A stretch of DNA of 64,000 bases, from contig JAUCBJ010006587.1 in the NCBI GenBank assembly GCA_032718475.1, forward strand, positions 62,001 through 126,000. Direction: 5' to 3'. The notes under the pieces are model-generated. The model searched no databases and was not told the origin of the DNA. It saw only the letters and a program-made list of their open reading frames with translations. Of the stretch, positions 10,801-59,974 are shown in pieces. Made by a program: the position numbers and the translations under genes. Origin of the DNA: Nemertoderma westbladi. Taxonomy: Eukaryota > Animalia > Xenacoelomorpha. Position 1 is the first letter of the stretch. Each line of letters opens with the position of its first letter.

Positions 10801-11197
10801 GTTCCTCTGAAACTGCAGATGGAGAAATTTTAAAATCATCTAGTTGCCCAAAATCATTTGAAATATCATTACATATGTCGTCATCGTCACGAGCCATATC
10901 TGAAGCTAATCCCTTTGCTAAATTGGCAACGAAGACGTCGTTGTCGGTTTGTTTAAAGAGGGAACCATTATCTTCATCCACATACCCTTCCATGTTGTCA
11001 CCACTCGTTATAACTGGCAATTCTTTAGTTGCAAAATTAAAATTATCTGAAGGTCCGTCAGATAGCGTTGGCTCAAATTCGTCCATTTCATCGCCAATAC
11101 TGGTTTCATTCCAAGAAGAAAAATTAGGCAGAGTATCCTGCAAAGCCTCTACTAACACTCGATTATCGCTAATATTAGAGTCTATGGAGTCATCCAT
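7808..11197 (-). CDS. Intronless multi-C2H2 zinc-finger protein (1129 aa) with acidic N- and C-terminal regions
   Basis: Long ORF with more than a dozen CxxC...HxxxH motifs (e.g. FACKYCSQGFKTRRSVITHTYSH-TGEKPY-RCKVCG) and a TGEKPY linker. Confidence 0.9.
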   Translation of the reverse strand: MDDSIDSNISDNRVLVEALQDTLPNFSSWNETSIGDEMDEFEPTLSDGPSDNFNFATKELPVITSGDNMEGYVDEDNGSLFKQTDNDVFVANLAKGLASDMARDDDDICNDISNDFGQLDDFKISPSAVSEELADLEVDVDINSSTLPVSESYLSKNSNSTKMSSSESGDLEEGEVTVSMQGQTSTRILPTRGELPKTPVVQAKIQTQHTVCTRSSAKSVGLAKSIGSNVGPEESVAMSGASNIEPGEIQQPGKQKPKTIGAVPSLSNKLVDSAVTVDLKRLDISDPSVFIMGGTKASSDGGLHICTKCNVNFDTLSRKERHVCRRSIYACVYCGTTYWQSLDLEKHFEQCEAKLRGFRPKFCFWCTDASPADDKLAKSAAPKPSDSAQAVSFLLKRYNLDSNNAKPRTFAEVYNKINKSGDLDPQTSISKTNDPVADTTTSKDRLDHQQVADHRYQCVQCGKKTFKSINDLHRHCKSHLFQGFYSCWRCEAEFTDHANLEIHELDHYRRGDWRVNFPCQIINCNTVFDFFVDWFDHLSQHIQFSGLISCSKCPLIFPSKKIMEEHIASAHPKPLPRFKCNLCGVMFTTVRSLAEHVSGSHDLVSADNVTGSSATSWPTRCALCRISFPTADACSQHMLLQHYIPLGRKAERRCPCGVYCYTLAELQKCSHAPGARDVCAKCGGRSYTGADIKFHQVIYHGANPRAAFTNARTKPATAVRHKAKRPSAGFRPIQRVFSCSVCNNKFSNEVIYRRHLLSHNNTNMQFACKYCSQGFKTRRSVITHTYSHTGEKPYRCKVCGIRCTQQTALRGHLEQHQRGHGPMFTCDICLAPFNRVSYRDFHRKLHLEGGVVGLAGVDEGRLFYCRVCRIPYARRAICEQHERVHYELGEGEAAGEMRTKRVRYDPRTGKLRSWHAVVEVSSDSDYSGDSADWRAQKIAYLSDNSESLGEENSRGDFKLSDTDEDGNDEMADSEKWTDRMKKLLRNGRSASQVEQPVEPPNNVDAAGEFDTPSIDLSNIGPDDISTSDLEELDSDTDDLRNIPDVSKKRKADYLEEDSSDIGEQFDTGYLKRGIDDDDDDEDIGMESPVVVGSPLPADSLGEIGGLGGLIGEVPSGSAMHDLDIDMDLI

Positions 11198-11685
11198 GAC
11201 CGATTATGACTTTAGGCCTATATAACAGAATAAACGCTCCACCCCACCAATGAGTAAAGTAAGACCTATTCCCTAGTCATGCCAAAGTTATATTCGGAAA
11301 ATCAACACACTAGTCTATATACCGTAATCCGGGGTAACTTGATATACTTTTTACCTTTAACTGTGAATATCTTTTGAAGTTTCTATCCTATAGAGATGGC
11401 ATAAAAAGAAAATTTGTTAGACGGGATAAGTAATACATCACTACTGCACCAGACTAATGCACTATTTGAGGTGTTTGGTCTAGTGGTGTTTTTATTTTAA
11501 AAAGCAACTGTATCAAGTCAACCCACAGAATGGGGTGACTTGATACATAAGCAAATTTTCCGCAAAATAATAGGGCACTTGTGTCAAATAGGGGACCCTC
11601 ATAACCTGCTAATCCTGAAATCGCATAAACTGAAGTCACTAGTGCCCGGTTAGTAAAGGAGCAGGTTACAGAGGCGAGTTGAAAG

Positions 11686-15429: not shown

Positions 15430-17174
15430 ATGTCAGATACTGTACAAACGGATCCAAAGCATGTCAGTATACTTTGCACACGGACCCAAAGGATGTCAGA
15501 TACTTTGCACACGGATCCAAATGATGTCATATACTTTGTACACGGACCCAATGGATGTCAGATACTTTGCACACGGACCCAAAGGATGTCAGATACTTAT
15601 GAACACGGACCCAAAGGATCTCAGATACTTTGAACACGGACCCAAATGATGTCAGATACTTTGAACACGGACCCAAAGGATGTCAGATACTTTGCACACG
15701 GACCCAAAGGATGTCAGATACTTTGCACACGGACCCAAAGGATGTCAGATACTTTGCACACGGACCCAAAGGATGTCAGATACCTTGAACACGGACACAA
15801 AGGATCTCAGATACTTTGAACACGGACCCAAAGGATGTCAGATACTTTGCACACAGACCCAAAGGATGTCAGATACCTTGAACACGGACCCAAAGGATCT
15901 CAGATGCTTTGAACACGGACCCAAAGGATGTCAGATTCTTGCACACGGACCCAAAGGATGGTCAGATACTTTGACACGGACCCAAGGGATGTCAGATACT
16001 TTGCACACGGACCAAAGGATGTCAGATTCTTGCACACGGACCCAAAGGATGGTAGATACTTTTGACACGGACCCAAGGGATGTCAGATACTTTGCACACG
16101 GACCCAAAGGATGCGAGATTCTTTGAACACGGACCCAAAGGATCTCAGATACTTTGAACACGGACCCAAAGGATGCCAGATACTTTGCACACGGACCCAA
16201 ATGTTGACAGATACTTTGCACACGGACCCAAAGGATGTCCGATAATTTGAACACGGACCCAAAGGATGGTAGATACTTTGACACGGACCCAAAGGATGTC
16301 AGATACTTTGCACACGGACCCAAAGGATGCCAGATACTTTGCACACGGACCCAAATGATGTCAGATACTTTGCACACGGACCCAAAGGATGTCCGATAAT
16401 TTGAACACGGACCCAAAGGATGGTAGATACTTTGACACGGACCCAAAGGATGTCAGATACTTTGCACACGGACCCAAAGGATGGTAGATACTTTTGACAC
16501 GGACCCAAGGGATGTCAGATACTTTGCACACGGACCCAAAGGATGCGAGATTCTTGAACACGGACCCAAAGGATCTCAGATACTTTGAACACGGACCCAA
16601 AGGATGTCAGATACTTTGCACACGGACCCAAATGTTGACAGATACGTTGCACACGGACCCAAAGGATGTCCGATAATTTGAACACGGACCCAAAGGATGG
16701 TAGATACTTTTGACACGGACCCAAAGGATGTCAGATACCTTGAACACGGACCCAAAGGATCTCAGATGCGTTGCACACGGACCCAAAGGATGTCAGATTC
16801 TTGCACACGGACCCAAAGGATGGTAGATACTTTTGACACGGACCCAAGGGATGTCAGATACTTTGCACAAGGACCCAAAGGATGCGAGATTCCTTGAACA
16901 CGGACCCAAAGGATCTCAGATACTTTGAACACGGACCCAAAGGATGCCAGATACTTTGCACACGGACCCAAATGTTGACAGATACGTTGCACACGGACCC
17001 AAAGGATGTCAGATAATTTGAACACGGACCCAGAGGATGGTAGATACTTTTTACACGGACCCAAATGTTGGCAGATACGTTGAACTCGGAACCAAAGGAT
17101 GTCAGATACCTTGAACACGGACCCAAAGGATGTCAGATACATTGAACACGGACCCAAAGGATGTCAGATACCTT
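15430..17174. repeat. 31-bp minisatellite (GATGTCAGATACTTTGCACACGGACCCAAAG), ~55 units
   Basis: Directly visible tandem array. The many short ORFs over it are artefacts. Confidence 0.97.
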
Positions 17175-17362: not shown

Positions 17363-19375
17363 TCAGTTATATTTAATATAAAGTAAACTGTTACTACGAG
17401 TTTCGTACAGAAAGAATCCACTATTATTATACATAGTAGCGATCCCACCGAACCCGTTTACTGGCACGGCACCCAATAGGGATACTTTAGTTCCGCTTCT
17501 ATCGCCTTCATAAACCCCCAGATAATGATTCCCTTCTTCTTCTAGAGGAACTAAGAAATACCATGATTGATTCAGCAGTAGTTCCACCGCCCCAATAGGG
17601 ATGGATTTACCCCAATCAAGAACGGATATCCTTCTATTCAATACGAGAGTAACGTTGGGTCCGGTGGCGGTAGCATTATAGCCACATATGGATAATTTAT
17701 GTTCGTTAGGTTGGAATAATCCGACGATTAAATAGCCCAGTAAACCGCTGGCAAGAAGTTTCCCGGGTTCTTCGATACGGGATATCCATTCCTTAGAACA
17801 ATCGCGTCGGTCCAGTTTAATCACGCAGTTGTTTGACGTTAGCAGATAATCACAATGGATACCGACCATAGGACCTATTGGTTGACCGCGGTATCTCTCT
17901 TTACCAAAACACAAATGTTTGACATCACCTCCGTCTGTGTTTATTACAAATACACATTCTTCCGTTGCGGCGATCCAGGTTTCCTTGGAGTAATTATCTA
18001 GAAACTTAATCTGTTTCTTTTCGGCGTTGCAGTCGGCTTCTAGAATAATAGGTTCACCACGTAGAGATAAAGAATCGTCGTAGTTGAATTCGTAAATATA
18101 AATCCTGTTAGTTAGGGAATCGGTTATCCCCAGGTTCCCATGACAACCACCAATGGAACCGACTTTACCGATTCCCATTCTCCGACAGTCGATCCGACAT
18201 GTTTCCTTTAGCGGCGGATCTCTTAATAAAATATCTTCGTATTGGTGGAGGTAAAAACGTTTCTCAACCTCCAGTTCTTCTACTGGAACCGCCATCTTCT
18301 CTCCTCCATCGCCGCTATCTATAATATCAACGCGGCCGGTAATCCCTTCCAGGTCCTTCTGTAACTCAACCGGAACGAAACGAATTTCCGGTACCTCTAC
18401 AACTTCTATCTCAGAAATCCGCTGCTCGATTTCTTTGTATTTCTTTAGAATCTTCTTGGCTTCTGCTATTTCTTTGATCAACTCGGAATTCTTTATCTTC
18501 TTATAATATTCGTTTTCTTCAGGAATTTCGATATTAGCGAGAATTTCCTGCGCTGCTGATATTTTTCCCGCCATTTTGGTATTTAAATCCCGGACCTGCT
18601 TCATCATTGTATCTTCGGCTGCTTTTAATTCGTTGTATAAATATTCGAAGTGTTTGCGGATGTCGTCGGTGGAAACTTTAGTGACGTCATCCAAATCCCC
18701 CAGAATTCCTTCCAACACTGTTAGTTTAGTCTCCAATCGAGTTCTCAACTTTCCGGGATCTTCTATTAAGTTTCGTCTGATTGAATTACAGACTTCGTTC
18801 GTATACCAGACCTCGTGATCTTTAGAAACATCGTCTACGGAATGGCATTGGCGACAAACAGTACATTCGCATTTCTCGCAATAATGGCGTTTGTTTAGAC
18901 CGTGGGTTAGGCACAGATCGGGATCCGGTTCTTTAGATCCACCAACAGCTCCTTGTTTATCGAGATCTACGTCATTAGACCAGCATCCCGTCGGTTCTCC
19001 AGCTGCTCCCGAATTAGGTGGATTGGCGACACAGACGTGGTAAGGTTCGCACTTTCTGCACAATTCGATGTCGCAACGTTCGCAGGGATTCGTTCCTTTG
19101 TTTTTTCTGCACTCGTCGCATGTTTTTTCTTTTCGAATCATATCAATCATGGTGACGACATGACTTACTGTCGGCAAAGAATCCAGTTTCTCTACCTCGG
19201 TGGGGTTCCGACAACGAGGACATTCCAACGAAAATCCATCACCGCGTTGTTTAGAAAATTTTACGATACATTTGTAACAGAAACAGTGGGAGCAGTTGAT
19301 CAAAAGTCGAGGCTGATGTAAAAGTCGTAGACATACGGAACATTCGAACTCTCGTTCCAGTTGCTCCCGGTCCAT
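17363..19375 (-). CDS. TRIM-like protein (RING, two B-boxes, coiled coil, divergent probable beta-propeller C-terminus), ~670 aa, single coding exon
   Basis: RING CSVC...CSHCFCYKC...CPRC, B-box CDEC...CERC...LCRKC..H, B-box CLTH...YCEKC...VCRQC...H, then a helical region. The first in-frame ATG (MDREQLERE) is at 19375 and is preceded by a TTGCAG acceptor-like site. Confidence 0.88.
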   Translation of the reverse strand: MDREQLEREFECSVCLRLLHQPRLLINCSHCFCYKCIVKFSKQRGDGFSLECPRCRNPTEVEKLDSLPTVSHVVTMIDMIRKEKTCDECRKNKGTNPCERCDIELCRKCEPYHVCVANPPNSGAAGEPTGCWSNDVDLDKQGAVGGSKEPDPDLCLTHGLNKRHYCEKCECTVCRQCHSVDDVSKDHEVWYTNEVCNSIRRNLIEDPGKLRTRLETKLTVLEGILGDLDDVTKVSTDDIRKHFEYLYNELKAAEDTMMKQVRDLNTKMAGKISAAQEILANIEIPEENEYYKKIKNSELIKEIAEAKKILKKYKEIEQRISEIEVVEVPEIRFVPVELQKDLEGITGRVDIIDSGDGGEKMAVPVEELEVEKRFYLHQYEDILLRDPPLKETCRIDCRRMGIGKVGSIGGCHGNLGITDSLTNRIYIYEFNYDDSLSLRGEPIILEADCNAEKKQIKFLDNYSKETWIAATEECVFVINTDGGDVKHLCFGKERYRGQPIGPMVGIHCDYLLTSNNCVIKLDRRDCSKEWISRIEEPGKLLASGLLGYLIVGLFQPNEHKLSICGYNATATGPNVTLVLNRRISVLDWGKSIPIGAVELLLNQSWYFLVPLEEEGNHYLGVYEGDRSGTKVSLLGAVPVNGFGGIATMYNNSGFFLYETRSNSLLYIKYN

Positions 19376-19965
19376 TGCTGCAATGTGAATGAATGTAGTC
19401 TGGTTGTTCGGTACCGGTAACGGCAGAACGGTACTGCGGTAGTGCAGTAGTTGTGGTGTGCTGTGTGGTGTAGTACAGTCTGTACTGCAGTATATTTCTT
19501 CAGTACCGGTATGCAGGTATGGCAGGTAGCCTAATACCTGTAGGTCTAACACTGTAGGTCTAACAACTGTGGATAGTTTTGAGATGAGTCCTACTGACAG
19601 ACTGAGTTGAGACAAACATTGGCAGACACTCGATCAATACCGATTATTAGAGATGGGGGGACAACAACTGTACACAAATCCAATCTCGGCGAATTAATAT
19701 TTAAATTAATTAAGTTAAATTCACTATTTAGGAAGAGGAGCAGGTTATTAGTGGCACTATATTCTAACCATAACAATAAATGAAACTCATTAGAACAGGT
19801 TAGAGGTTTTATTTTTGAGAGCAATTATCTGTTATTTGCGTCGAGTTTCCCCTGGAGAGAGATGTATATTTATTGATGATCTGATTAAGTGCGAAAATAT
19901 CCCCCCTTGTTAAAAATTACAGAAATTTGTTTTTTTATTGCACCTAGAGGGGTAGCCTCCCTGCC

Positions 19966-20052: not shown

Positions 20053-22489
20053 AAAATTCCTAAAATGTGGTATCGAAAAATAAAAATGGAAAATAACGGA
20101 GGAGTAGTCTTTTTAGTGAAATTTTTTAAATCATACAAAGGCCGCTAGGGGGCGCCAAAAAATATTATTTTTTCAAATTTTTATGTACTTTGATGATCCT
20201 CTTTTCTATGGTATCGTTTTCTATGCATTTTTCAACCACATTGGAGACATGCACAAAATAAGATAAAACCGTAGGGGAGATAAAACCCGTTAACCGTTTT
20301 TTGCAATTTTTTATTTATATGAAAGGTAATTTCATAAGCTTCAATAAATTTCGACTAGATTTCTTGATTCCATAATATTTCCCCATTTTTTAATGAAAAA
20401 TTTGAAGAAACATGGGTTTTTCATTTTTTTTTTAATTTTAAATTATTTTTTACAAAATTGCCAATTATCAGAAATAGAAAATGAAAATACAAAATGTATC
20501 GCAAAATATATTAAGAATACGTACATTATTTAAGAATGCTATGCCGGCTTGTCAACAAAGTTGCACCGTCACAATTCCCTCTCCCGCATGACATTCGCGA
20601 GATTATCCGCATCTTCAAGGCCAGTGTCCTTTAGGAGGCGTCTTCCGAAAGTAATGGGCCGTCCACCATGCTTATTTTCTCTATGAGGCTGCTAAACCTC
20701 AAGATTGTGCGCAGGCTGGTCCTCACGGCGAAAGCAATGATATGTTAACCAAGCTTTCATGTACTGCATATACAGCCTATATACAGTTATACTGTAAGTC
20801 TGGAGTTCTGAGAGCCATTTATTGCAAAAAAAATCGTTTGTTTGGGATTTATTCTTTGTTAGTTTTACATTAAATTTGACATCCTGGGGAATTTATCCCC
20901 GCCTTGTAATAAGACTGAGACCGGGCTCTGTCTAGGCTCCCACTTGTCGGATGTCCTTATCCCAGTATGGTTTGATCGTTACCTTGTCTGTCTGGTGTTG
21001 GTTGTTGTTCGTACTGATGTAAGACTTCAAAGACTGTTTTGCTGCCAATGCTAACTGTATACAGAAATCTTATAATTTTATCAGATTATCATTCAATTTC
21101 AGTGCATATAATATTTGTACTTCACGTGTATTGAATAGCCCATAAAGTTGTTTATATGTTGCCTAACAACAGTTGTGGTATTACTGAACTCTTATTGGTA
21201 ACTACCGAAGCCGGTGTTTCTTACGTCTTATTGGCTCTTCTATTTCACTGAGCCTTGCTTGTACCTTATATAATCAGTGCCCACCTTGACACTATAGGCT
21301 TAACCTGATATCATATTCAGGTACTTTACATCGTTTTTATAGCCTAGCGAGCCACGTTAGTTACAACGGCTTGCAATATAATTGCTTATCACTTATTACT
21401 TGCAACTTATCGCTTGTCATTGCAATTTAACATCTTATTGCTTATTATTTGCATTTACTATTATTGCATTACTTGCTAATGAATATATTGGACCAGAGAT
21501 CAAACCAACTCGATTTCCACATGGTGAGTGCATATTGCGCCCTGTCTGTAATAGTATTCGGTTCATTTAATGCGAGTGTGTGTGCCTATAGTACTGCAAT
21601 ATTATTCCCAACTAGTAAATATCATTTACTAACAATGCAAGTGATACGAGTAAACTGTGCGCTTATCACGCACTAGGCCAACGTAGTGTCCTACCTGTGA
21701 TATATGTAAGTCATACGTACATTTACTAGCCAACAACACAATATAACGGAACGGTTTACACGTAACTATCGCACCCCTTTGAAGCAGTTTGAAGCAGGCG
21801 GAGGCTTTATACTTACAGTAACTAATTCTAGATCTCGTTAAGATATATATATTAGATAATATATATATATACCTCCACGCTTTCGTGAGTGTTCCTGCTG
21901 TGTGGCAGGTATCCCAAGGCATAGATAGCACTCATAAGAACTACATAAATACTTGCTAGGCATCTTCAGGTTAGCCTGCCATAAACGCCTTGACAGACTG
22001 CGTATCTTCGTAGTTCGCTACTTACTTCCAAACATCTGAGATTATTTATCCTGCGGTGACCAGAATTTATCCTTCAGTATAATTAATTGGCTCAAAATAA
22101 AAACATTAAGTAATTCTCGTTGCGTTTTCGAACCATTGAGTTGCGCCAAAGTTTCTTTGCGTTGCGTATTTTCCTTGATGCCCATTTTGATGCTAAATTA
22201 ATTAATAATTACCAACGTTATTACTGGTCTAGAATAATTAATGCGAATTCAACAGAATGAACCTCTATCTCGTTGATTGGATAAATAATTTTACCTCCAG
22301 TTTTGGAATATTGTTCGGAATTACTTTATTATTCTGCAATGCGGATATTAAAGTCTTTATTTTATGAATTATATAAATAATTATGATGCAATCATCCTAT
22401 TATCTCTATTCTGTATTCTCCTATGACTCGCATATGTTTTAGGTAATTATAACTTATACCGGTCCTATATACTTTCAGTTTCTACACTC

Positions 22490-23641
22490 TGTAAAGGCTT
22501 TTGCGTAATTAGCCGGTTATTTTCCCCGTAAAGTACTCTGTAGTTGGTTTAACCGGCATAAAAGGCCGTGTCCTTACTGTATTGTTGTTTTAGAGGACAT
22601 AAAAGCCATTTCTTCTGTATGTGTACTTTAGCGGACATGATTAGCAATTCTATGACGCAATAAGCCGGATCCTCTTGAAACAGTGTAGATACCATGACGA
22701 CGGCTAACAGCTGATATTGCCACGTAGAACATCTCTTTGTTCTTTGTTCTCTCTTTGATCGGTCGACCAATCAGAGCGTTTTTTGCCTCTGTGTTGGAGA
22801 TGGTATATAGAAACTAGGGAAGTGAGTCAGTATGTGAATTCTTCCACAGCCTACAACACCGGCGTGGAACCTACGTGTTTCAGTCTTTAGTTCAACATTA
22901 GTAGGCTTAATTATAGAACGTATATCCGTTATCTAATCTTATTAACTATCCATAACTTAATCATTCATACCTTAACATTACTGCTTTTGCTGTCGGCTAT
23001 TCATTATATTTGTTGATGGAACATTATATTTGGAATACTGATAAACAATCAGACACCCCAATCTTCTTGATATACTAAAGGTTAGAGAGACCGGATACAT
23101 ATAACGATTGCGACTTACATTAAGTGGTTTGAAGTGAATCTAATGCTATTTTATAGGCCCTACACGTATTGTCTGTTGTTCTCCTTATATGTGACTAAAA
23201 TTAGTGAAGGTCGGCAGATTAGTGTGCAGCATTGTGCAGTATTGTGTATGATTGTGATTGATAACGAAGCATCTCCTAAAGAATGCGCCATATACGTGAA
23301 TCTATAGCCATCCCGTTGTGTCTGGTTTAAGTCATAACTCTGTTTATATATTTAGAGCGCCACGTCCTAAAGGAACTGTTAATATTTCCCGAAAGTGAAT
23401 AATATTTGTCAGAGATTATATATATTAAGATCAGTCGAATAATACAGTAGGCCTATCCCGCAATACGATTAGGCTTCCGAATCTAGTCTCCTGGGTATAT
23501 CCAGCGGGTGAATGATCGCGCATAGACTGGTTTCGGCTAATGTAGTGTATCAAATATTTGTCGTAGGCTAAAGACTATCTATTATCTAGAAGACATCCTA
23601 ATTTGGCAGGTTAAACTGCTAAAGGTCTGAAAGCGCGAACA
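22490..23641 (+). repeat. 5' LTR of element A (1152 bp)
   Basis: TGTAAAGG...GCGCGAACA, matching 35114-35985 plus 47938-48217. Confidence 0.95.
22765..22832 (+). promoter_or_regulatory. Candidate LTR promoter: CCAAT box, TATA-like TATATAGA and Inr-like TCAGT
   Basis: GACCAATCAGAGCG is conserved in all three LTR types, TATATAGAAA is at ~22804 and TCAGT ~24 nt later. The TATA-like site is degenerate in B and C. Function is inferred. Confidence 0.45.
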
Positions 23642-23653
23642 ATAACGGATATA
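23642..23653 (+). promoter_or_regulatory. Non-tRNA primer-binding site of A (ATAACGGATATA), complementary to LTR 22921-22932
   Basis: Abuts the LTR end, has no TGG, and is the exact reverse complement of TATATCCGTTAT. Confidence 0.75.
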
Positions 23654-25272
23654 AAGTTCGGATTGCAGGGTAGGCAATAAATACAGTTTAATATTGTTCT
23701 GGTAAGAACAATAACGGATATATGTCTAATTGCAGGGTAGGCAATAAATACAGTTTAATATTGTTCTGGTAAGAACAATAACGGATATAGCTTCTGTATT
23801 GCAGTAGGCAATAAAGCTGAAGTACCGGCAACCGGTACCCAGTAGGCCTGACTACCTAACCACCCAGACCGGTACCTACAGCAGTACAGGTATAGCAGTA
23901 TTATTCGATTTGATAGTTATATACTGGTAGGCCTTAATATTGAATCAGGGAGGGCCCGCCCTGGTTTTTTATTAAGATTTTACTTATTTCTGTCAAGTTT
24001 TATTTATTTGTAGGCCAATATTGAGCAGAAGGCGTGTAAGCCTGCTCAGATTGTACAGATAATTTGTAGGCTTGACTGTTGTCTAACTGTTGTTAAGTCT
24101 GATCGGATTGCAGTGTGTGTAGAGCATCTGTCTGATAAAGTGCTAGTTAGGAACGTAGGGGCTTCAAGTGCTGTGAGGTAAACCCCCTTTGAAAGAATAA
24201 GTCGTACTACTATGGTACGACTACTACTAGTCGTACTACTAGGCACGTTGGTTCTGGTAGACCGCGGTAATTAACTTCTAGGTAGGAACACTCCGTGATA
24301 CATAACGTAGTACTTATAGCGATACGGCTATAAGTCGTCAGACGGTGGTATTTTCCTATCTGGACAACGCAGTATATTTACTACTACTTATTATTTTCAA
24401 ATACCGTAGTACCCTGTCCGTTGTAATAACCAGATATTCTAACCCTTTGTTAGGCTGGTTAGTAGACTTCTTGTAAAATTACCCTAAAAATTCGTATTTG
24501 TGTATTTGTAATTTTTTTTGTGTTTATTTAGAGATTGTAATCTCAACCCGAATTGTACGTAATTTGTAATATTAAGTAACTTAGGTAAATTAGAATTATT
24601 TGTTTTAGTGTCCAACAAGTAGCACTTCATTGAGAGCGCACAGCTTCTGTGTAGTGACTCCCCCCAGAAATAATAACATTTATTTCAAATATTGACAAAA
24701 ACCCATTTTAACGGGTATATATATTATAAATCAACTTAAACGATTTATAAAATAGTAGGCCTGCCATACAACAATTAGGTCTCAATATCAGTTGGACTAC
24801 TGCTTAAATAACGGTAATAAAGTAAGTTAAAGTAACCAAGTAACCCTTAAAATTCAGAAATTCAATTATTCTAAAATAATTGACATACCGGTATTTACAA
24901 TAGGCTTATTATATTTATTTCTATAAATTTTAGGCTGAAATTATACCGGTATTCTGTAATTAATTCTAGTTAATAATTATACTTATATATACTATAAGTG
25001 TAAACTGCATACCGGTATTCACGATAGGCCTATTATATATTTATATATACTTGTGCTGAAAGTACATACCGGTATTCTGTGACAAATCTAGTCTGTGACA
25101 ATACTTATATATATATACTATAAGCATACCGGTATTCTAATATATTATATATATATCACGCTACACTGAGTAGCAGTATCGGTAATTAATTACTAGGCTA
25201 GCAGTTAATACTGAATTACTAGACTTGCTTAGACTGTAATATAGCAGTAGGCATTCAACTGTGCAAACAAAC

Positions 25273-27714
25273 ATGTCTGATACTAAGCAGAACCTGTCAG
25301 ACAGTTTATTAGATGTAACTATCTGCGACTCAGATAGGGGTGTAGAACCGTCTAGACCTAAGTTCAGTTCACCTCCCACTGTGAGGAAGGTCATCCCTCC
25401 TGTAGTAATTTCAGACCCTAGGCTAGTCCAACATCGTAGGTCTATCATAGGCACTCGAGCTCAGGTCAAGCGGGACCAAGAAGCAGCGGAACAGCAACAA
25501 CTCGCGAGCCAAGAACTTATTTCTCAACGGTCCGACAGCTCCAGTAGTGAGGATACTGTAGAGCTGACACCCGAGCGCGGAGCAAAGATGACGGATGCGG
25601 TTTATTCAGATCCCCTACTCATCCTTCCTGCAGCCGTACTCACTAGGTTATTGATTGCGGTGGAAGAACACCAGATCGATTGGGCGAGAAGTAAGCGATC
25701 GACTAAAGATAGTTATGCGGGATATACAAGGGAAGAACTGAAGTCTATTGTCGAGTCGCAATGGAACTTCCCCGGACCCGGACTCCCGTTTGATTTATCA
25801 GAAGCTGCCTGGGAAGATATACACAGGATGGGAGTAACCAAGGAAACCGTCGATCCAGCTGTGTGGAAGAGGTCCGCAGCCGGATACGTACAGGGATTCG
25901 TAAGCTCTATGGAGCGAGTAGAAAAACAACTGTTTCAACAACCCCAAGGACCTCAAGAGCAGGGACAACTGCTTTATCAAGTTAGAGAAAGAATTCTACG
26001 AATCAGGCTAATCTTATCAGCCTTTGAGGAGGCTTCTAAAAGAAGACAAGACACGTCGTTGCAAGTTGCCGTAAAGACTTGGTTTCAACGGGTGAGCCTC
26101 CAAGTGCAGGGAACGACTCAGTGGAAAGCCCAACTGGATGAGCGCTCAACCCATGGAGAATCAACAGACGCTACTTTTTCCCAAGTGGAAAGTGAAGCGA
26201 CGGCAGAGAAGCCGCATAAGAGGGATGCCATTGACATCTATCTGTCGGACTATCAACGTTTTGTAGGAGATGAAGAGTTGAGGAGAAGACTAGAGGGGCT
26301 TAGCCCTAATAGTGAAGGAGCCCAGCGTGTGTTGGACGCAATCGATGTGGATAGGTTAGCTGCGAACCAAGCTAAATTCAATGAAAGCATCCGCATCGCT
26401 AAGGTTCAAGAAGAACAAGTAAAGAAAAAACGTATAGAAGACAGAAAGATAGCAGCAGTGGCAGCAGCAGTGGCAGCGGCAGAAGCGGAAAGAAAGGCTG
26501 TAGAAGCGGAAAGAAAAGCAGCCGAAGTGGAAAGAAAAGCGGCAGCGGCAGAGGCAGAAGCGGAAAGAAAAGCAGCCGAAGTGGAAAGAAAAGCGGCAGA
26601 GGCAGTGGCAGAAGCAGAACGAAAGGCGTCTGAAGAGACTGCCCAACTAGAGTTGGAAAATCTTCAAGAGAAGCAAGACAACTTTAATAAACAGTTAACA
26701 GCTAGTAATATGCAGATGATGAATCGATCTACTCCCAAAAGGCAAGGTTATACATCATCTGAGGAAGGCGATACCACAGATCAGGAAGGCGGAGGAAATC
26801 GATCTCGCCTAAGCAGACGTAAAAGAATGTCCCACCGTCAGAAATTGCCTGATTTGCCCCCAGCTGTTCGAAGGCAACTAAATAACACAAATTTAGGTAG
26901 TACAGAACCCACAGACCAAATAATTAAAATAGAAAGACTCCCTACTATAGTAGACGAGCCTGAAATAATTAGGCCTGTTCTTGAAATCACCCCTTCGGTG
27001 ATAGAGACACCTGTACTCCCAGAACCTACCTTTAAATTCCCTTTACACAGCACCAAATTATCTGTGCCTAGAGGAACAGCCCCTGAAACAGTGTCGGTCC
27101 TGGACTCCGAGCGAAATATAAAGGATATATCGCCCGTAGTCCCTCGTCTGCCCGCTACGACGTTGGCGGATCCTGCTTCGGCGGTTGATTGGGTAGACGA
27201 GAGACGGCGGGGGATGGATATTCTCCTCGGAAAGATGGAGGAGAATCGAGTGCGCTCCTCCCAACAGGTCCGAGAGTTAGAAGGGACTGTTCAACAGTTA
27301 AAGGGAACCGTAAAGGAAAGTAGGTTAGAGTTGCAAGAAGTGCAGCAAAGTATCGCGCTAGAACGCGATAAATTAGTAAATTTACAAAAGGGTATACCAC
27401 CACCCCCGGTAACAATGTGTCAACCTGTTAGGTCTGAAGTATCTCATGCGCAAGGTGTGGAGCCTACACGCATATATACTGCTAGCGAAGTAGAAACTCC
27501 TATAGTGAACCCTATTAAGGGTAATTATAGACCTGTTGATAATGATATTCCCTATAGACCTGATCATAATCCGAGAAATTTATATACCGATAACTCGATA
27601 TTAAATAACACGATGGCCCAAGAAAGTTTTACGCGTCAAATGGCTAGAACCGAAGCCCGCCAAGCGGTAAAGGTGGGAGAGATAGTCAAGTTCAATGGAG
27701 ATGAGATGAAATGA
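25273..27714 (+). pseudogene. gag: gag N-terminal part of element A, truncated by the LINE insertion
   Basis: Homologous to the B and C gag. It ends ...VKFNGDEMK* where B continues EMKWLPFNEYY, and the TGA is created by the insertion junction. Confidence 0.9.
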
Positions 27715-29638
27715 CTCAAACAGACTACAGCGGCCAAGAATGCAGTTAAAGCTGCATCTAGGTCTCTGAACAGGCAGTACTCTGTTAATCTACAGGAGCT
27801 AATAAACCAACAGGTTGATGCCATCAATGATGCTGACGACAGCAGGCAATCATCCCAGGCATGGAAATCGATCAATCTGCTTACTGGGCGGAAAAGCCAA
27901 CCAACCACCAAGGTTAAGGCTGAATCACCAGCCGATCGCCTCAATGGTTGGAAAGCCCACTTTGAAAAGCTCCTCAATAATGACAGGGTATTGCCTGATA
28001 ACTTTATAGAAGTAAAAGTGTCTGAGTCTGTACTCCCAGATATTCCCATTGGCGATATCTCCTTTGCAGAAGTGAAGGCTGCTGCAAAGAGCATTAAGAC
28101 CAATCGTGCCAGTGGAGTAGATGGTGTTCCCCCTGAGGTCTTTAAAATACCTGAGTGTCTAAAGCTCATCTATCCCATCATAGTAGACATGTACCGTACA
28201 ACAAGAGTCCCACAAGAAATGAAAACAAATAAGTTGGTGCCAGTTCCCAAGAAGGGCAACCTAACACTCTATGGTTCTTTTCGGGGAATCTCATTGATCT
28301 CGATTGCTGCAAAACTATACAATAGAATTCTATTAAATCGCATCAGGGATCCCATTGAGAGACTGCTACGTGGAAATCAGAATGGGTTCCGTAAAGGTCG
28401 TGGGACCATGGAGCCCATTTTGGCACTTAGAAGGATAATTGAAGAGTTATCAAAAAAGAAAGACAGGCATCTGGCTGTTATCTTTGTTGACTTCTTCAAG
28501 GCCTTTGATTCAGTCTCTCGCTCACGTATGTTCAGCATACTTTCATTATATGGGATTCCTGATGAAATTATTGCAGCAATCAGATCAGTATACGATGGTT
28601 CGACAACATTTGTGTCTACTGTTGACGGTGACACAGAACCATTTGAAGTGTTATGGGGCGTCCTCCAAGGAGACACACTTGCACCATTCTTGTTCATTAT
28701 TGTGGTTGACTATGTTCTACGCATGTCCTTAGATCATCATAATGATGATGGGGTGATGATAACTCCACCTACTGGCTCCAGAAGTCGAGGAAATCCTGCC
28801 AAGTACCTAACTGATCTAGACTTTGCTGATGACTTAGGAGTACTCTCAGAATCATTAGAGGGAGCCCAGCGGCTCCTCAGCTCATTAGAACATGCTGCTT
28901 CTAGTGTTGGTCTTTTTATTAACTCCAGAAAGACCAAAATTCTGACAGTTAACTTTGAAAGTCCTCAGCAAGTCTCTGATCGGATGAGCATAAGCTCAAA
29001 GGATGGTATGCTTGAGCATGTGGACGACTTCTGTTACCTGGGATCATGGATCCGGAAGTCAGGTGAGGACCTTCGAATACGTAAGGGAAAGGCATGGGCA
29101 GCCTTGAATAGGCTTTCCAGGATTTGGAAGTCACCTAGAATTAATCGGAAACTTAAGGTCCGATTATTTAGAGCAGCAGTAGTTCCAGTACTCCTCTACG
29201 GGAGTCCATGCTGGGCTCTAACTGCTGAGGACACCAAATCTCTGGATGGCACATTCACAAGAATGCTACGCCGGGTACATTGTGTCAAGTACAATGCACA
29301 CATCTCCAACCAGACACTATATAACATTGGAGGTGTCTCATTGGTTCCCCCAAGCTTGACACTAGAACAAAATCGCCTCCGCTTTGCAGGACATTGCTTT
29401 CGCCGTGAGGACCAGCCAGTGCATAATCTTGTACTTTGGCAGCCTCATGGAGTGAATAAGCATGGTGGACAGCCCATGACTTTCTTGAGACGCATCTTAA
29501 AGGACACTGGCCTTAAAGATGCGGATGATCTAGCAAATGTCATGGGTGATAGGGAGTTGTGGCGGCGCAATTTTGTTGACAAGCCGGCACAGCATTCTTA
29601 AAAATGCAGCTGCAATGCAGCATGCCGATCCTAGTAGT
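27714..29638 (+). mobile_element. 5'-truncated RTE-clade non-LTR retrotransposon
   Basis: TSD AGATGAAATG (27704-27713, 29639-29648; 8-10 bp because of overlap with the tail) and a (TAG)n tail. The empty site is visible in B at ~41266-41280. Confidence 0.92.
27715..29601 (+). CDS. LINE reverse transcriptase (open frame, 5'-truncated, no endonuclease)
   Basis: RGISL, QNGFR, FVDFFKAFDSV, GVLQGDTLAPFLF, LDFADD, YLGS and the RTE-type C-terminus RLRFAGHCFRR...LW.P. The frame is open from the 5' junction. Confidence 0.9.
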   Translation, partial: LKQTTAAKNAVKAASRSLNRQYSVNLQELINQQVDAINDADDSRQSSQAWKSINLLTGRKSQPTTKVKAESPADRLNGWKAHFEKLLNNDRVLPDNFIEVKVSESVLPDIPIGDISFAEVKAAAKSIKTNRASGVDGVPPEVFKIPECLKLIYPIIVDMYRTTRVPQEMKTNKLVPVPKKGNLTLYGSFRGISLISIAAKLYNRILLNRIRDPIERLLRGNQNGFRKGRGTMEPILALRRIIEELSKKKDRHLAVIFVDFFKAFDSVSRSRMFSILSLYGIPDEIIAAIRSVYDGSTTFVSTVDGDTEPFEVLWGVLQGDTLAPFLFIIVVDYVLRMSLDHHNDDGVMITPPTGSRSRGNPAKYLTDLDFADDLGVLSESLEGAQRLLSSLEHAASSVGLFINSRKTKILTVNFESPQQVSDRMSISSKDGMLEHVDDFCYLGSWIRKSGEDLRIRKGKAWAALNRLSRIWKSPRINRKLKVRLFRAAVVPVLLYGSPCWALTAEDTKSLDGTFTRMLRRVHCVKYNAHISNQTLYNIGGVSLVPPSLTLEQNRLRFAGHCFRREDQPVHNLVLWQPHGVNKHGGQPMTFLRRILKDTGLKDADDLANVMGDRELWRRNFVDKPAQHS

Positions 29639-29640
29639 AG

Positions 29641-31887
29641 ATGAAATGGTTACCTTTTAATGAATATTACAAAGATAACATACAGAACTCTGTGCTATCT
29701 AATGGAGAGAAACTTAGATTCCTCATCGAGTGCTTGGAAGGATCTCCCAAGCTAATGGCGTTAAAGTTTATTGGACATCCAGACGGATTAAGACAAGTTT
29801 GGGATACACTAAACATCAGGTATGGTAATAGGAATAACATAGCTAGGTATTTGTATGCAAAATTAATGGCGCCCCGAAAGTTTCTTAGCAGCGGGATTAT
29901 AGAGTTTTCCGATGAGATTCAGGAGATCTGTAGACAATTAGATTGGCTAGGTAAGTCTCATGAATACCAGAATTCTATGGTTGTAGGAGCCTTAGCATCT
30001 ACTTTGCCCAAGGGTGGAGTAGGTACACGCTGGGACAAGAAAGTGTTATATATGATGGAACAACAACGACGAGACCCTACCATGGCTGATCTCATGTCAT
30101 TCTTAGATGGAGAAGTGAAATTACAGCTCCTAAGGCAGTCCAGAGAGAAGACACTGGAAAACAAGGTAAGTGAGAAACCCGTTTCTAGGAGAAGGGTAAT
30201 ACCAGTGTGTTATACCGACGACGGCGAAAGCCAGGCTTCTCAAGAGGAAGACAGCGGGAAAGACACTGAAAGATCTTACTATGACCACAAAGCGACTAAG
30301 GACGTAAGTAAATTCAAGTCTCGAACCAATGACAGGAGAGAACAGGTAAGAAAAACTCCTCCTACGTCTCCTAAGAGAATTCAAGTAAGAAAGCCCGAAG
30401 AAAGAACGAGTGTGCACAACGTTACTCAAAGTAAGGTAAGTAACATCAAACCAAAATGTGTGCTGTGCGACGGGCCCCACCGTTTGAATATGTGTGATAA
30501 ATTCCTAAAGAAATCATTAAAGGATAGACGTGAAGTCATGTGGGATAAGCGGTTGTGTTATAATTGCCTCAGACGAGGACACCAACGGCGAACCTGTTAC
30601 TCCGACTCAAGGTGTGCAAAGTGCGGCGCAAAACATCATATCTTGTTGCACACGGAATTCGAACGAAACAGCCCGAGTCAGGTAAGTGAGTCCGAACTAC
30701 ATGTCCAATTCAGTGATGTGAACGACACTGACCAATATTCTGAGATGGAAGGATTCTATACGGACGAATTCTCCGACGAAAACGAATCCTGTTACCTGAC
30801 AAATACCGCAGTGTATCGAGCACTTACGTATGAAAAGGACACCGACAGCGAGCTCCCCCTAACTACTTCTGACCGACAACCATCTTGGAAAGCACCAACT
30901 TCCAATGTAGGAATCCGAGAATTTCCTGTAGTACAGTTAAGGGTCCACGGACCTACAAGGAGTTATATAGTGAACGCCCTCCTTGACTCCGGTAGCACAG
31001 GAACATTCATCGACAAAGAACTAGCCGAAGACATCTTTGCTGGACAACCCAAGTTCCGAACTAAGCTAAACATGTCAGGAATTATGCAGGTTTGGAAATC
31101 TACCGTAATAGCGGATTATTATGTAGGCGCGTTGTCCACCCCCCAGGATGAACTAGGAGAACACAGCATAAGGTCAGTAAAAATGGTAGCGATAAAGAAC
31201 TTCGCGACCAGCCAAGTGGAACCTTATAACTGGGATGAGGACGATTTCACCCAGCAGCTTGAAATACCTAGATTCAACACCGATTACCCTGGAGTCCAAA
31301 TACTCATCGGTCAAAATGCGCATGAAGCGCTCGAGACATTGGAGAAACGGCCTGCTCAACCGCAACCACTACAAGTCTATGCGGGAAGAACTAGAGTAGG
31401 TTGGTACTTTACTGGCCCTTCTCGTAGAACTCTTATGGAAAGATTACCAAAAGAACAGGTATATCAATTAAGTGAACGGGAAGTGGAGAGCAGTGAAGTT
31501 GACGACCCAACTGAGGGAACACCATACTCCTCAGATAATGACGACATCAACTCCAATGTAGATCAATGGAGACATTGCCCCGAGACGATCAATCTAGCCG
31601 ACATCGCTTCCAGAGGAGCAACTCCTCAAGAACTTACAGATACTCCAGACCGGTTAGGTGGACCCGACTTCCTAAGTAAAGAAGATGAATGGCCTCCTCA
31701 TCTTACCCCGGTGAAGATTAGACAGGCCAAGGGAGCGGAGAAAGTAACACAACCACTCAATCGCCCAGCTGGTCGTTTATGTTTACTGGAAAGAGACCGA
31801 AAACTGTCCGGAAACTATGGAAGGCAAGATACTCTTCCCACGACCACCTCCCTAATCCAACAAATATCTAGGGACTCCATAACGTAA
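29641..31887 (+). pseudogene. gag-pro: gag C-terminus, aspartic protease and fused pol remnants of element A (RT, RNase H and integrase deleted)
   Basis: Triple Cys/His knuckle (CVLCDGPHRLNMC, CYNCLRRGHQRRTC, CAKCGAKHHILLH) and LLDSGS. Junctions DDI|NSNVDQWRH and EDEWPPHL|..VKIR relative to C and to full BEL pol. Confidence 0.9.
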
Positions 31888-33512
31888 CAACATACGGAGT
31901 GGGTGTGTGACTACATTATTTTATATTTATTTTTATTATTTTATATTATGTATGTATTATTATGTAATTTTATTATAATCGTTTTCTTTAATTTTATTTA
32001 GTAGAATGTTATTTAGTGATTATTTAGTAGATTAGTGCAATATATTAGTGTTTATTACTTAATTACTTATATATTATATTTAGTGCGACGGCGAGAAATA
32101 ATTCTTTTTCTCTTTCCTTACTGTCCGTATCATATTATAAATACGTGACTACAGTAAGATGAAATATCCGTACTTATTAAAGTACAATAAAGCCACTACT
32201 ATATTTAAGTATTATTGGTAGGCAGAGTATTAGGAATGCAAAGTTCAGATCCTCGTGTCTCGGCTAAACCAAGCTCTGGGTAGACCTTGGAAACGACTTG
32301 CCTCTTCTCACTGACATTGCTTCGTGCGATATTGCTCTCATACCGTATATTAAATAATACATATAGTAGCGTGATGTCCCTTTAACAGTAGCGTATAACG
32401 CAAAATAAATCTGTTAAACCCTTTGACCATCTGTAATTCTAGTCGATTAAGATATCGCGGCACCCACCGATATACTTGAAAGACAAATTCTAGAATCAGT
32501 GGTTAACGTCCCCAGACAAGTTCTGGAATAAACTGGTGCCCATCCTAAATATTAATTATTAATATTTATAAAATCTGTCAAATTTTAGATCCTTTAAAAT
32601 TCTAGTCTATTAAGATATCGTAGCACTTACCGATATTCTTAAAAAGATCAATTCCTAGAATCAAGGATCCCAGTCCACAGACTTGTTCTGGAATAAAATT
32701 GTGTCTATTTAATATTAAATAATAAAATTACGGGAATAAATTTAAATTCATCTTTTAATGAATTTGATAAATTGTTATTTTATACAATTTATAATATTCC
32801 CAAAATTCCATTAATTAATAGATCATGGGAGCGGAGATTCACCTCTTAAGTGTATTAGTGTGCGAGAATCTCCAATATAGAGTCAATAGCCGATAAAATT
32901 CATAAAATCATATATAAAGATGATATTGACCATCAAAGACTTACTATTAAATAGCATCCCAGATCTGTATGCATGAGAATTACCCTAATTCTACCGCTAG
33001 CTTTCCATAATGTCACCATAGCAACAACCACGCTAAAATTAGAAGCGAGTTAACAGAACAATAAAAAGCTTGCCCCATTGAATAGCATAGGGAATAAATA
33101 GCGCACTGCTAGTATCCAAGGATACATAATAAATACAGTGACATTCTGGAAGGTACTGACTAACGGACAAATTGCCCGAATGTGTGCGGTTATGGCAGTT
33201 GTGTTGAATTTGTGCGTTTGTAGGTGAATGTTTCTACTAAGGTGTGTTTACAGTAGCGAGTCGCAATTGTGAAAGTAGCCCTAACTCTCCAGAAAGAACC
33301 TGCAGTACATCTAAGCCTTTGGGACGGACAGTGGAGTGACTTGTGCCGGTTATCGTTGTCGTTGTGTAGCTACATCGTTGGCGAAAGCACGGCGATGACG
33401 GTACATCGGCGCTGAGGATCTTACACTGTCCGGGGGCAAAAGAGGGGTAGGCAGCGACGCCCGCTAGCCTAATATATAAACTCATTATAATATTGATAAA
33501 CTCATAGCAGAT

Positions 33513-35035
33513 ATGACTGAGTTGATAGAAGATGATCTCGGTATTAGGGAGCGATATACTCTACCTTTACAAGCGTTTGTCGATAGCTTGATACGCGGCG
33601 ACGCTGATCCAACTACTACGGAGGATGATGGTCGTTATATCTAACCGCCAATGTCCCGGAAGCAACTTGCGCGTGGGTTGGACTGTAGAAAATTCACCGC
33701 TCGCTATACACATCGTAATGGTACGTATATGGACTTCTTAACTACTGGTCATCCTATCGACCTACACGATACGAACGATATAGACACCAAAAGGGAAATT
33801 GTTTTATTTAAATATCATACCCAGCGGAAGCGGAACGATAAACTGAGACTCGAACACGAAAATTCTATTCGAAACCGACTCGAAAGTGCAGATGGTGAAG
33901 AGCCGGATAAACGCAGCGACTTCACCAAATACCTGGAATTCTTGAGAGAAACCTATCTCGATATTACCAGTCAACAGAATCTAGAAACTCGATATCCTCA
34001 AGGTATACATCATGACCGCATGGTAGAACTCAAACGGCTCTATTCCACTATGATGTATCTTACCGCCGATCGACCGCTACCTGTTGTACCGGATAGTTTC
34101 GAACGGATGGAGGAATATTGTAAGCTGGAGAAAGATCACTCGAGTTTCCCCTACAAGACGTGCGTTTTTGGTATTTTTGCGATGAATGCCCAAGACCCAA
34201 CCAACAAACGGAAAGACATAAACATCCGCGGAGACGTTGCTTTAAACACGGTTTTACTCGCTATATTTACGGGAGTTTCGAGCGAAACTTGTTCGATGTA
34301 TCACCTACGCTCGTTCGACTCAGACGATCCTTAAATAAACCAATGATCAGAGTTTCGGAATACTCGATCAGATCTTCTCATTCCCTAGTGAGACCTCAGA
34401 CTCTTGATCCTATTAGTATGACGGATCCTCCCGAGCTGTACTCACTACTCAAAGATCTAGTGTTACCTGAACAATTAGTCGGTGGCACCCCGGTTGTGGG
34501 CTTCCTAGATATTAGCCCATCCTACCTAGCCGGATTGGGACGCGGACATTTAATATCGCCGCTTAACCCTTACCATCGTCCCGGCTTAACACGATATAAC
34601 CTGTCACCAAAGTGGCGGAGAGCGTTGTACCAAATGAGTTAGACGCTATTCTACAAAGATCGGAAAAGGAACTTACGCTTGTTCAGATAAACGTAAATTG
34701 CACTAGCAAGTCCAAGCGGTAAACAAAGTAAATTTATCTCAGTTCGATCGGGAAATCCAGAATCTCTAAGAAGTTATCGAACTTGGACGACCCTATTCTC
34801 TGCGAGAGTTTTTGGATGAACGTATCCAGCTACGAGCGGAGGAAAATCAGCTCGAGGAGAAGCATATCGAAACGGCAGATACCTCGCCCATAATCCTACA
34901 CCTTCTGATGCAATCATATTGCACCCTTCACCCCGGAGTTATGGCCCTCCTAGTAAAGTGGCTCGCCCCAAAGAGAAAAGGACTCTTGCTAGCCTCAAAA
35001 AACTGCGTAAACGCCGTCCTCGTAAGAAAGACTAA
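33513..35035 (+). pseudogene. Extra ORF3 of element A (unknown function, disrupted)
   Basis: MTELIEDD start, premature TAA at 33642, fragments 33651-34334 and 34160-34642, and basic C-terminus ...LKKLRKRRPRKKD*. Homologous to B and C. Confidence 0.7.
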
Positions 35036-35113
35036 CTGTTTAGAGTATCTTTATATTTTAGAAACTGTGATTTGTTATATTTTATAGACTTAAATCCCAT
35101 TTTCTGGGAGCGG

Positions 35114-35985
35114 TGTAAAGGCTTTTGCGTAATTAGCCGGTTATTTTCCCCGTAAAGTACTCTGTAGTTGGTTTAACCGGCATAAAAGGCCGTGTCCTTA
35201 CTGTATTGTTGTTTTAGAGGACATAAAAGCCATTTCTTCTGTATGTGTACTTTAGCGGACATGATTAGCAATTCTATGACGCAATAAGCCGGATCCTCTT
35301 GAAACAGTGTAGATACCATGACGACGGCTAACAGCTGATATTGCCACGTAGAACATCTCTTTGTTCTTTGTTCTCTCTTTGATCGGTCGACCAATCAGAG
35401 CGTTTTTTGCCTCTGTGTTGGAGATGGTATATAGAAACTAGGGAAGTGAGTCAGTATGTGAATTCTTCCACAGCCTACAACACCGGCGTGGAACCTACGT
35501 GTTTCAGTCTTTAGTTCAACATTAGTAGGCTTAATTATAGAACGTATATCCGTTATCTAATCTTATTAACTATCCATAACTTAATCATTCATACCTTAAC
35601 ATTACTGCTTTTGCTGTCGGCTATTCATTATATTTGTTGATGGAACATTATATTTGGAATACTGATAAACAATCAGACACCCCAATCTTCTTGATATACT
35701 AAAGGTTAGAGAGACCGGATACATATAACGATTGCGACTTACATTAAGTGGTTTGAAGTGAATCTAATGCTATTTTATAGGCCCTACACGTATTGTCTGT
35801 TGTTCTCCTTATATGTGACTAAAATTAGTGAAGGTCGGCAGATTAGTGTGCAGCATTGTGCAGTATTGTGTATGATTGTGATTGATAACGAAGCATCTCC
35901 TAAAGAATGCGCCATATACGTGAATCTATAGCCATCCCGTTGTGTCTGGTTTAAGTCATAACTCTGTTTATATATTTAGAGCGCC
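35114..35985 (+). repeat. 3' LTR of element A, first 872 bp (interrupted by B), preceded by PPT-like GGGAGCGG
   Basis: Appears identical to 22490-23361. Confidence 0.95.
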
Positions 35986-37153
35986 TGTAAAAGCTTTTGC
36001 GTAATTAGCCGGTTATTATCCCCGTAAAGTACTCTGTGGTTGGTTTACCAGGCATAAAAAGGCCGTGTCCTTGCTGTACTGGTGTTTTAGAGGACATAAA
36101 AGCCATTTCTTCTGTATTTGTACTTTAGAGGACATAATCCGCAATTTCGGGACGCAATAAGCTCGATACTCTTGAAAACAGTGTCGCTACCATGACGACG
36201 GCTAACAGCTGATATTGCCACGTCGACATTTCTTTGTTTCTTTGTTCTCTCGTTGTTCGGTCGACCAATCAGAGCGTTTTTTGTCTCTGTGTTGGAGGTG
36301 GATACAGAAACTCAGGAATTCAGTGTTATGTTTTTGCCCAGAGCCTAAGAACACCGGCTTTTGGCACCTCCGTGTTTCAGTCTTTAGTCTTACATTAGTA
36401 GGCTTAATTATAGAACGTATATCTGTTATCGAGTTACCTTATCAATGCAATTCAATGCTTACTAAACATATCATGCATATCTTACTTAACATTACTGCTT
36501 TTGCTGTCGGTTATTCATTATATTTGTTGATGGAAGATTATATTTGGAATACTGATCAATAGTCAGACACCCAACCTTCTTGATATACTAAAGGTTAGAG
36601 AGACCGGTTACAGATAAACGATTGCGACCTATGTTAAGTGGTTTGAAGTGAATCTAATGCTATTTTATAGGCCCTACATGTATTGTCTGTTATTCTCTTT
36701 GTATGTGACTAAAATTAGTGAAGATCGGCAGATTGGTGTGCAGCATTGTGCAGCATTGTGTATGATTGTGACTGATAACAAAGCATCTCCTAAAGAATGC
36801 GCCATATACGTGAATCTATAGCCATCTCATTGTGTCTGGTTTAAGTCATAACTCTGTTTACATATTTAGAGCGCCACGTCCTAAAGGAACTGTTAATATT
36901 TCCCGAAAGTGAATAATATTTGTCAGAGATTATATATTACGATCAGTCGAATAATACAGTAGGCTTACACCATCAATCATTAAGCTTCCGAATTCAGTCT
37001 CCCGGGTATATCCAGCGGGTGAATGATTGCGCATAGACTGGCTTCGGCTAATGTAGTGTATCAAATACTCGTCATAGGCTAAAGACTATATATCATCTAA
37101 AAGACATCCTAATTTGGCAGGTTAAACTGTCAAAGGTCTTAAAAGCGCAAACA
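35986..37153 (+). repeat. 5' LTR of element B
   Basis: TGTAAAAG...GCGCAAACA, followed by ATAACAGATAT. Confidence 0.95.
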
Positions 37154-42363: not shown

Positions 42364-42376
42364 CCAATATTCTGAG

Positions 42377-46686: not shown

Positions 46687-46764
46687 CTGTTTAGAGTATC
46701 TTTATATTTTAGAAACTGTGATTTGTTATATTTTATAGACTTAAATCCCATTTTCTGGGAGCGG

Positions 46765-47932: not shown

Positions 47933-47937
47933 GCGCC

Positions 47938-48217
47938 ACGTCCTAAAGGAACTGTTAATATTTCCCGAAAGTGAATAATATTTGTCAGAGATTATATATA
48001 TTAAGATCAGTCGAATAATACAGTAGGCCTATCCCGCAATACGATTAGGCTTCCGAATCCAGTCTCCCGGGTATATCCAGCGGGTGAATGATCGCGCATA
48101 GACTGGTTTCGGCTAATGTAGTGTATCAAATATTTGTCGTAGGCTAAAGACTATCTATTATCTAGAAGACATCCTAATTTGGCAGGTTAAACTGCTAAAG
48201 GTCTGAAAGCGCGAACA
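47938..48217 (+). repeat. Last 280 bp of the 3' LTR of element A
   Basis: Matches 23362-23641 (A-type, e.g. GGCCTATCCCGCAATACG) with 2 substitutions seen, followed by TSD CACTC. Confidence 0.95.
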
Positions 48218-59946: not shown

Positions 59947-59974
59947 CTCTAACCTACTTTCCCTTACTGTTCCC

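Follow-up and report, generated by a model that had tools for sequence, protein, structure and literature searches.

Self-comparison of the 64-kb window (the whole stretch of Nemertoderma westbladi DNA analysed here) revealed an LTR element family with three copies, A, B and C, in which minus-strand DNA is probably primed by a piece of the element's own LTR RNA in place of a tRNA, on the analogy of Tf1. This self-priming interpretation, which the original prediction had put forward, was supported by a BEL/Pao Pol, by the lack of a tRNA-type PBS, by an element-specific duplex abutting the LTR, and by the recurrence of the signature in 14 of 16 related families.

The LTR ends of the three copies were set by comparing 5' and 3' LTRs, and every LTR ended in CA. 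Element A (22490-48217, plus strand) was flanked on both sides by a 5-bp target duplication; its 5' LTR occupied 22490-23641 (1152 bp, TG..CA), and its 3' LTR was found in two parts, 35114-35985 (0/872 differences from the 5' LTR) and 47933-48217 (2/285 differences). Element B (35986-47932, plus strand) was nested within the A 3' LTR with a 5-bp target duplication of its own, and its LTRs lay at 35986-37153 (1168 bp) and 46765-47932 (3/1168 differences). Element C was on the minus strand, with a 3' LTR at 51344-52460 (1117 bp) and a 5' LTR at 63201-64000 that was cut by the window end and differed from the 3' LTR at 2 of 800 positions. A short purine-rich tract preceding the A 3' LTR (35106-35113, plus strand), identical in B and C, is a putative PPT. 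Because the LTR pairs were nearly identical (2/1157 differences in A, 3/1168 in B and 2/800 in C, or 0.2-0.3%), all three elements are young.

All three copies were nevertheless defective, and no intact copy of the family was seen. The gag-protease remnants of A (25240-31884, plus strand, broken by a non-LTR insert at about 27714-29638) and B (38821-43516, plus strand) lacked RT, integrase and most of RNase H. C retained a gag-PR-RT-RNase H frame (55771-60018, minus strand; PF03564 and PF05380) with no integrase core downstream, so that the integrase core was missing in 3/3 copies, C having been compared with two full-length relatives. LTR pairs only 0.2-0.3% apart despite the missing RT or integrase therefore indicate that the cis signals worked in recent transposition, and we infer that A, B and C were mobilised by a helper element. 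Several other features of these elements were also recorded. The insert in the A gag region (27714-29638) was a 5'-truncated non-LTR retroelement (RVT_1, DUF6451) with an apparent duplication of about 10 bp. Gag carried an N-terminal extension of about 800 aa ahead of DUF1759 (A 25240-27711, B 38821-41250), which contained alanine/glutamate-rich repeats and had no Pfam match. Between pol and the 3' LTR lay a stretch of about 3 kb (A 31885-35100, B 43520-46750, C 55340-52470) with repeats of about 165 bp and broken frames; two frames of this region had no match in Pfam, and the A frame at 33645-34331 had no usable match in the Atlas. The region may or may not hold an env-like remnant.

The assignment to BEL/Pao was confirmed by the Pol encoded in C, which matched PF05380 (Peptidase_A17; E 4.6e-33) and PF03564 (DUF1759; E 2.4e-11), and PF05380 was found in 120 of the 120 RT-RNase H matches listed. 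The best Pol relatives, by RT-RNase H, were only 38-43% identical, and their named sources were echinoderms, cnidarians, molluscs, a tunicate and fish; in a tree of 33 rows, C formed a long branch without placement. The domain order in C was PR-RT-RH followed by a C-terminal tail. In line with Belpaoviridae (BEL/Pao, Semotivirus), the elements had PF03564 and PF05380, TG..CA LTRs of about 1.15 kb and a putative PPT, and a 5-bp target duplication was present in A and B, the 5' end of C lying past the window. In the ICTV profile of this family the PBS is 18 nt long and serves tRNA-Arg or tRNA-Gly, and replication is described as tRNA-primed and poorly understood (PMC8742986). No such PBS was present, either in A, B and C or in the 16/16 related families. 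Since the priming site departs from the ICTV description, the three elements were filed as BEL/Pao by Pol only. A Ty3/gypsy chromovirus Pol was not found in them, whereas a PBS complementary to the own LTR was; the family thus likely works like Tf1, judging by this analogy, but is no member of Tf1/sushi. The viral contig set yielded no match to the LTR pattern and no relative of Pol.

In place of a tRNA-type PBS, the bases adjoining each 5' LTR were the exact complement of a site inside the same LTR. In A, the PBS at 23642-23653 was an exact complement of a putative self-primer site at 22921-22932 (12 nt, 709 nt ahead of the LTR end); in B, the PBS at 37154-37164 paired with a putative site at 36419-36429 (11 nt); and in C, on the minus strand, the PBS at 63190-63200 paired with a putative site at 63946-63956 (11 nt, with a possible 12th G-U pair). 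The original prediction had named these six stretches, and all of them were recovered at exactly these positions as complements of 12, 11 and 11 nt. It had further claimed that no TGG follows any 5' LTR and that pairing ends at the LTR boundary; both held, the PBS starting 0 nt past the LTR and the duplex leaving a 0-nt gap in A, B and C alike. The two compensatory changes that it had reported were also present, at PBS position 6 (G in A; A in B and C) and position 8 (A in A and B; T in C), both mirrored in the LTR site, so that the covariation is based on two variable positions in the three copies of the window. The self-primer sites occupied one homologous LTR position, and the LTRs diverged just 3' of it, as predicted: 12, 8 and 3 of 25 positions were identical there (ungapped), versus 24, 16 and 17 of the 25 ending at the site.

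The duplex was specific to each element. The longest perfect complement anchored at the LTR end was 12, 11 and 11 nt in the own LTR versus 5-7 nt in the six cross-element pairs. The exact-match length was reached in only 3, 3 and 4 of 5000 dinucleotide-shuffled LTRs for A, B and C, respectively, and a looser score (offsets 0-5, G-U permitted) was equalled by 5, 19 and 15 of 300 shuffles. In addition, the PBS was present three times in the leaders of A (repeats of the identical 12 nt at 23711-23722 and 23778-23789) and C (leader repeats at 63122-63132 and 63053-63063, minus strand), in units of 67-69 bp, and once in B, and 7/7 PBS units in these leaders bore the variant of their own element. 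The leader may also pair with 22915-22918 in a second short helix, upstream of the main duplex; C carried one additional A in the LTR and one additional T in the first leader unit, at this possible second helix.

DNA contigs of related copies changed abruptly just past the site. In contigs of runs X1, X3 and X4, likeness to A collapsed at about 22933-22936, and the fall was weaker in X5; summed depth in run X1 was 119,610 at 22930-22932 versus 1,973 at 22936-22938. The loose contig ends behind this edge were unlike one another, and together with the edge this is what is expected of a strand-transfer boundary, although an indel of A's own explains part of the edge.

By analogy with Tf1, transcription would start at, or upstream of, the LTR self-primer site, which would fold onto the PBS. 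The RNase H of the helper element's RT would then cleave just 3' of the site (after 22932 in A), and the freed 3' end would be extended through U5 and R, about 710-745 nt, before jumping to the 3' LTR. At plus-strand synthesis the primer would be copied into a new PBS. Because a change in the LTR site would in this way be written into the PBS, covariation could arise without two separate mutations, and we take the site/PBS covariation to be a trace left by priming. The variable stretch just past the site would be the edge of strand transfer. PBS repeats might, more speculatively, be lost when second-strand transfer goes to a downstream unit and gained by template switching.

We also searched the surrounding sequence for structure and transcription signals. 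In each of the three elements a U5 hairpin was predicted at a distance of 18 nt from the LTR end (in A at 23602-23623, plus strand, 8 bp with a 6-nt loop, from a local fold only), and B carried two one-sided changes in it. A U5 stem-loop is reportedly required in Tf1. Thermodynamic folding of the natural stretches of 826-860 nt gave a pair probability of 0.0 for the helix between site and PBS in A, B and C, in a setting where the arms are more than 700 nt apart and fold predictions are weak; folding thus lends the helix no support. The distance from self-primer site to LTR end was 709-745 nt in A, B and C versus 44-203 nt in 14 relatives. No TATA box was present about 30 nt upstream of the self-primer site in the window copies, and AATAAA was absent after the site in A and B. 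In A, however, a TATA-like word at 22912-22918 precedes the site by 9 nt and could place the transcription start downstream of it.

Other origins of the primer were weighed against these data. An element-derived primer might act in trans, cut from the 3' LTR copy or supplied by a second packaged RNA or a short LTR transcript. The self-primer site does occur in both LTRs, the helix in the 710-nt range was not recovered by folding, and the TATA-like word lies just upstream of the site. However, a shared pool of primers would mix variants in a family as large and variable as this one (11,693 contigs in run X1), yet 7/7 PBS units matched their own copy, and we regard a trans primer as unlikely. 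We give the same low probability to a host RNA without a CCA end, such as a half-tRNA or another small RNA, acting as primer while the LTR:leader duplex serves as a regulatory or packaging structure. Half-tRNA primers are known in copia lineages, according to the available portions of PMC6317226, and the ICTV gives tRNA priming for the BEL/Pao family (PMC8742986). ARAGORN found no tRNA in the 64-kb window, and a search of 22400-25300 against Rfam returned nothing at E<=1. With a host primer the PBS would be fixed, and neither the LTR nor a splice junction would be constrained, whereas the PBS letters varied among the three copies and the 16 families, always tracking the own LTR; moreover, pairing stopped at the LTR end, or at most 4 nt from it, where a primer 3' end is needed.

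A chance inverted repeat, or a functionless repeat kept alike by template switching, is very improbable. The sequences are short and AT-rich, the PBS of C is almost palindromic, and the loose score was equalled by up to 19/300 shuffles. Against this stand the exact match, so rare among the 5000 shuffles, the homologous position, the two matched changes, and the recurrence of the complement across splice junctions of relatives. Self-priming remained our preferred reading, and its signature was also sought in related elements.

For this purpose, the RT-RNase H of C was aligned with 31 matches, which led to 80 metagenome loci and 16 genome-bin loci. Two copies fixed a candidate LTR end in 20 of these loci, of which four were left out, namely L028 (same family as L024), L095 (same family as L040), and L044 and L080 (end unclear); the 16 families that remained had about 40% Pol identity to the A/B/C family, and for L027 and L041 an arbitrary LTR start was used. 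The 16 genome-bin loci (L081-L096) carried BEL/Pao Pol in bacterial genome bins, with titles including Rubritalea, Endozoicomonas and Poribacteria, and several had both LTRs; they are probably animal host DNA binned with bacteria.

TGG was found at the LTR end in 0/16 families, and a self-complement of 10-15 nt was present in 14/16. In 12 of the 16, a perfect PBS complement of 11-15 nt was formed across a GT-AG junction in the LTR, the junction being 72-451 nt long, and in two (L061 and L087) the complement was contiguous and 10-11 nt long, as in the window; L069 and L084 gave no convincing self-match. The duplex started 0-4 nt past the LTR in these relatives, where contiguous matches were mostly 7-9 nt. 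With any GT permitted and no consensus imposed, GTAAG came out as the single best donor in 9 of the 12 junction families, and the other three (L033, L082 and L083) had donor ties, each including a consensus-like donor. As a control, 255 other dinucleotide pairs were tried in place of GT-AG; 0-6 of them equalled it in the nine families, and 13-22 did so in the other three.

The match was again specific to the own element. In a swap matrix, whose donor pattern was picked after the GT-AG results were known, at least 10 nt were matched in the own LTR by 17/19 elements versus 6/342 pairs with a foreign LTR, and three of these six were between sister families. The sisters L082 and L083 showed matched differences on both sides of the duplex. 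In a second set, in which the LTR end was not fixed, 7/14 loci reached 11 nt (four spliced, three contiguous) versus 4/182 swaps; L039, among the seven, is related to L090, and in two of the loci that fell short the LTR start was probably placed wrongly. The original claim of self-priming by this lineage was thus supported as the likely mechanism, but its restriction to the lineage was too narrow; the self-complement trait seems common among these relatives and mostly splice-dependent. Contiguous forms were not clustered on the tree (three changes, with 500/500 shuffles as low).

A spliced primer was considered for A, B and C as well. Its donor was poor and its match, at offset 1, was 10-11 nt long; since 73-84 of 255 control dinucleotide pairs equalled this, the contiguous duplex was preferred for these elements. 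A donor-like site at 23081 was also conserved at the corresponding position of each LTR, with a possible acceptor about 275 nt downstream (at about 23355); an intron there in R-U5, if spliced in the template, would vanish on replication. In the relatives, an initiator-like AG had been tried as a mark of the transcription start; the pairing came to no more than 7-9 bp and included mismatches, and the AG was read as a splice acceptor instead. At 12171 and 2999 in the window, the junction motif had stray matches that lacked an upstream complement. In L027, near the LTR donor, a TATA box preceded the first paired base by 31 nt, a hint that the duplex may begin at the transcription start; this arrangement was not consistent in other families.

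A, B and C would accordingly represent a contiguous form, and most relatives would make the primer by splicing an intron from the 5' LTR copy. On balance we favour the wider reading that a large BEL/Pao branch lacks tRNA priming, that most of its members splice an intron from the 5' LTR RNA copy and transmit it through the unspliced 3' copy, and that a few Tf1-like, intron-less forms, the A/B/C family included, have arisen repeatedly.

Self-priming has precedents outside BEL/Pao. In Tf1, the first 11 bases pair with the PBS and an RNase H cut after base 11 frees the primer, according to the available parts of PMC7175516, PMC4600332 and PMC5341516, and the first of these also places the PBS sequence at the end of the plus-strand cDNA (PMC7175516). 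Like A, B and C, Tf1/Tf2 (Schizosaccharomyces pombe), Tj1 (S. japonicus), Tf1/sushi and the Tcn1 chromoviruses (Ty3/gypsy) have no tRNA PBS and an LTR:PBS duplex of about 11 nt adjoining the LTR. The Nemertoderma elements differ from the Tf1/sushi group in that their Pol is BEL/Pao, not gypsy, their transcription start is putative, 709-745 nt separate the site from the end of the LTR, A and C have a tripled PBS, and most of their relatives need splicing to form the primer. The accessible portion of PMC6317226 describes self-priming for Tf1/sushi and Tcn1 gypsy elements and predicts it for the TAR lineage of Ty1/copia (Houba, Osr-1) from an LTR:PBS complementarity of at least 10 bp, 0-5 bp from the LTR. 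The duplexes of A, B and C fall within these limits as they appear there; the TAR lineage is plant copia, another superfamily.

The original prediction knew of no self-priming report for BEL/Pao, and none was found in the open papers searched; supplements, Repbase, GyDB and subscription papers may hold PBS remarks. The main texts of PMC554778, PMC3118150, PMC6238403, PMC8556966 and PMC2774666 did not mention PBS, priming or tRNA, and PMC8220671 contained only generic mentions of them. In the sections available of PMC3601003, PMC5443660 and PMC6934838, self-priming came up in connection with Tf1-type elements or an ancestral state only, and those of PMC3601003 propose tRNA priming as a late invention, a proposal, as far as these sections give it, on which self-priming in BEL/Pao bears.

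BEL/Pao elements are abundant in animal genomes. If true, self-priming in this group would correct the tRNA-primed description of the ICTV profile and would add a third superfamily to a mechanism for which proof exists only from gypsy elements of yeast. If the reading of a large branch is also true, none of the three superfamilies of LTR retrotransposons would be without self-priming, and reverse transcription would be gated by host splicing. Both readings give exact predicted positions, the cut site in A and the splice junction in relatives. PBS-based annotation would overlook self-priming elements, and such elements would presumably lack the target of 3' tRNA fragments.

Outside the three elements, the window contained tandem arrays at 1-1000, 15488-16900 and 49453-49986, with units of 22, 31 and 142 bp. 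Host frames on the minus strand at 7808-11203 and 17363-19633 encoded a C2H2 zinc-finger protein and a RING-finger protein.
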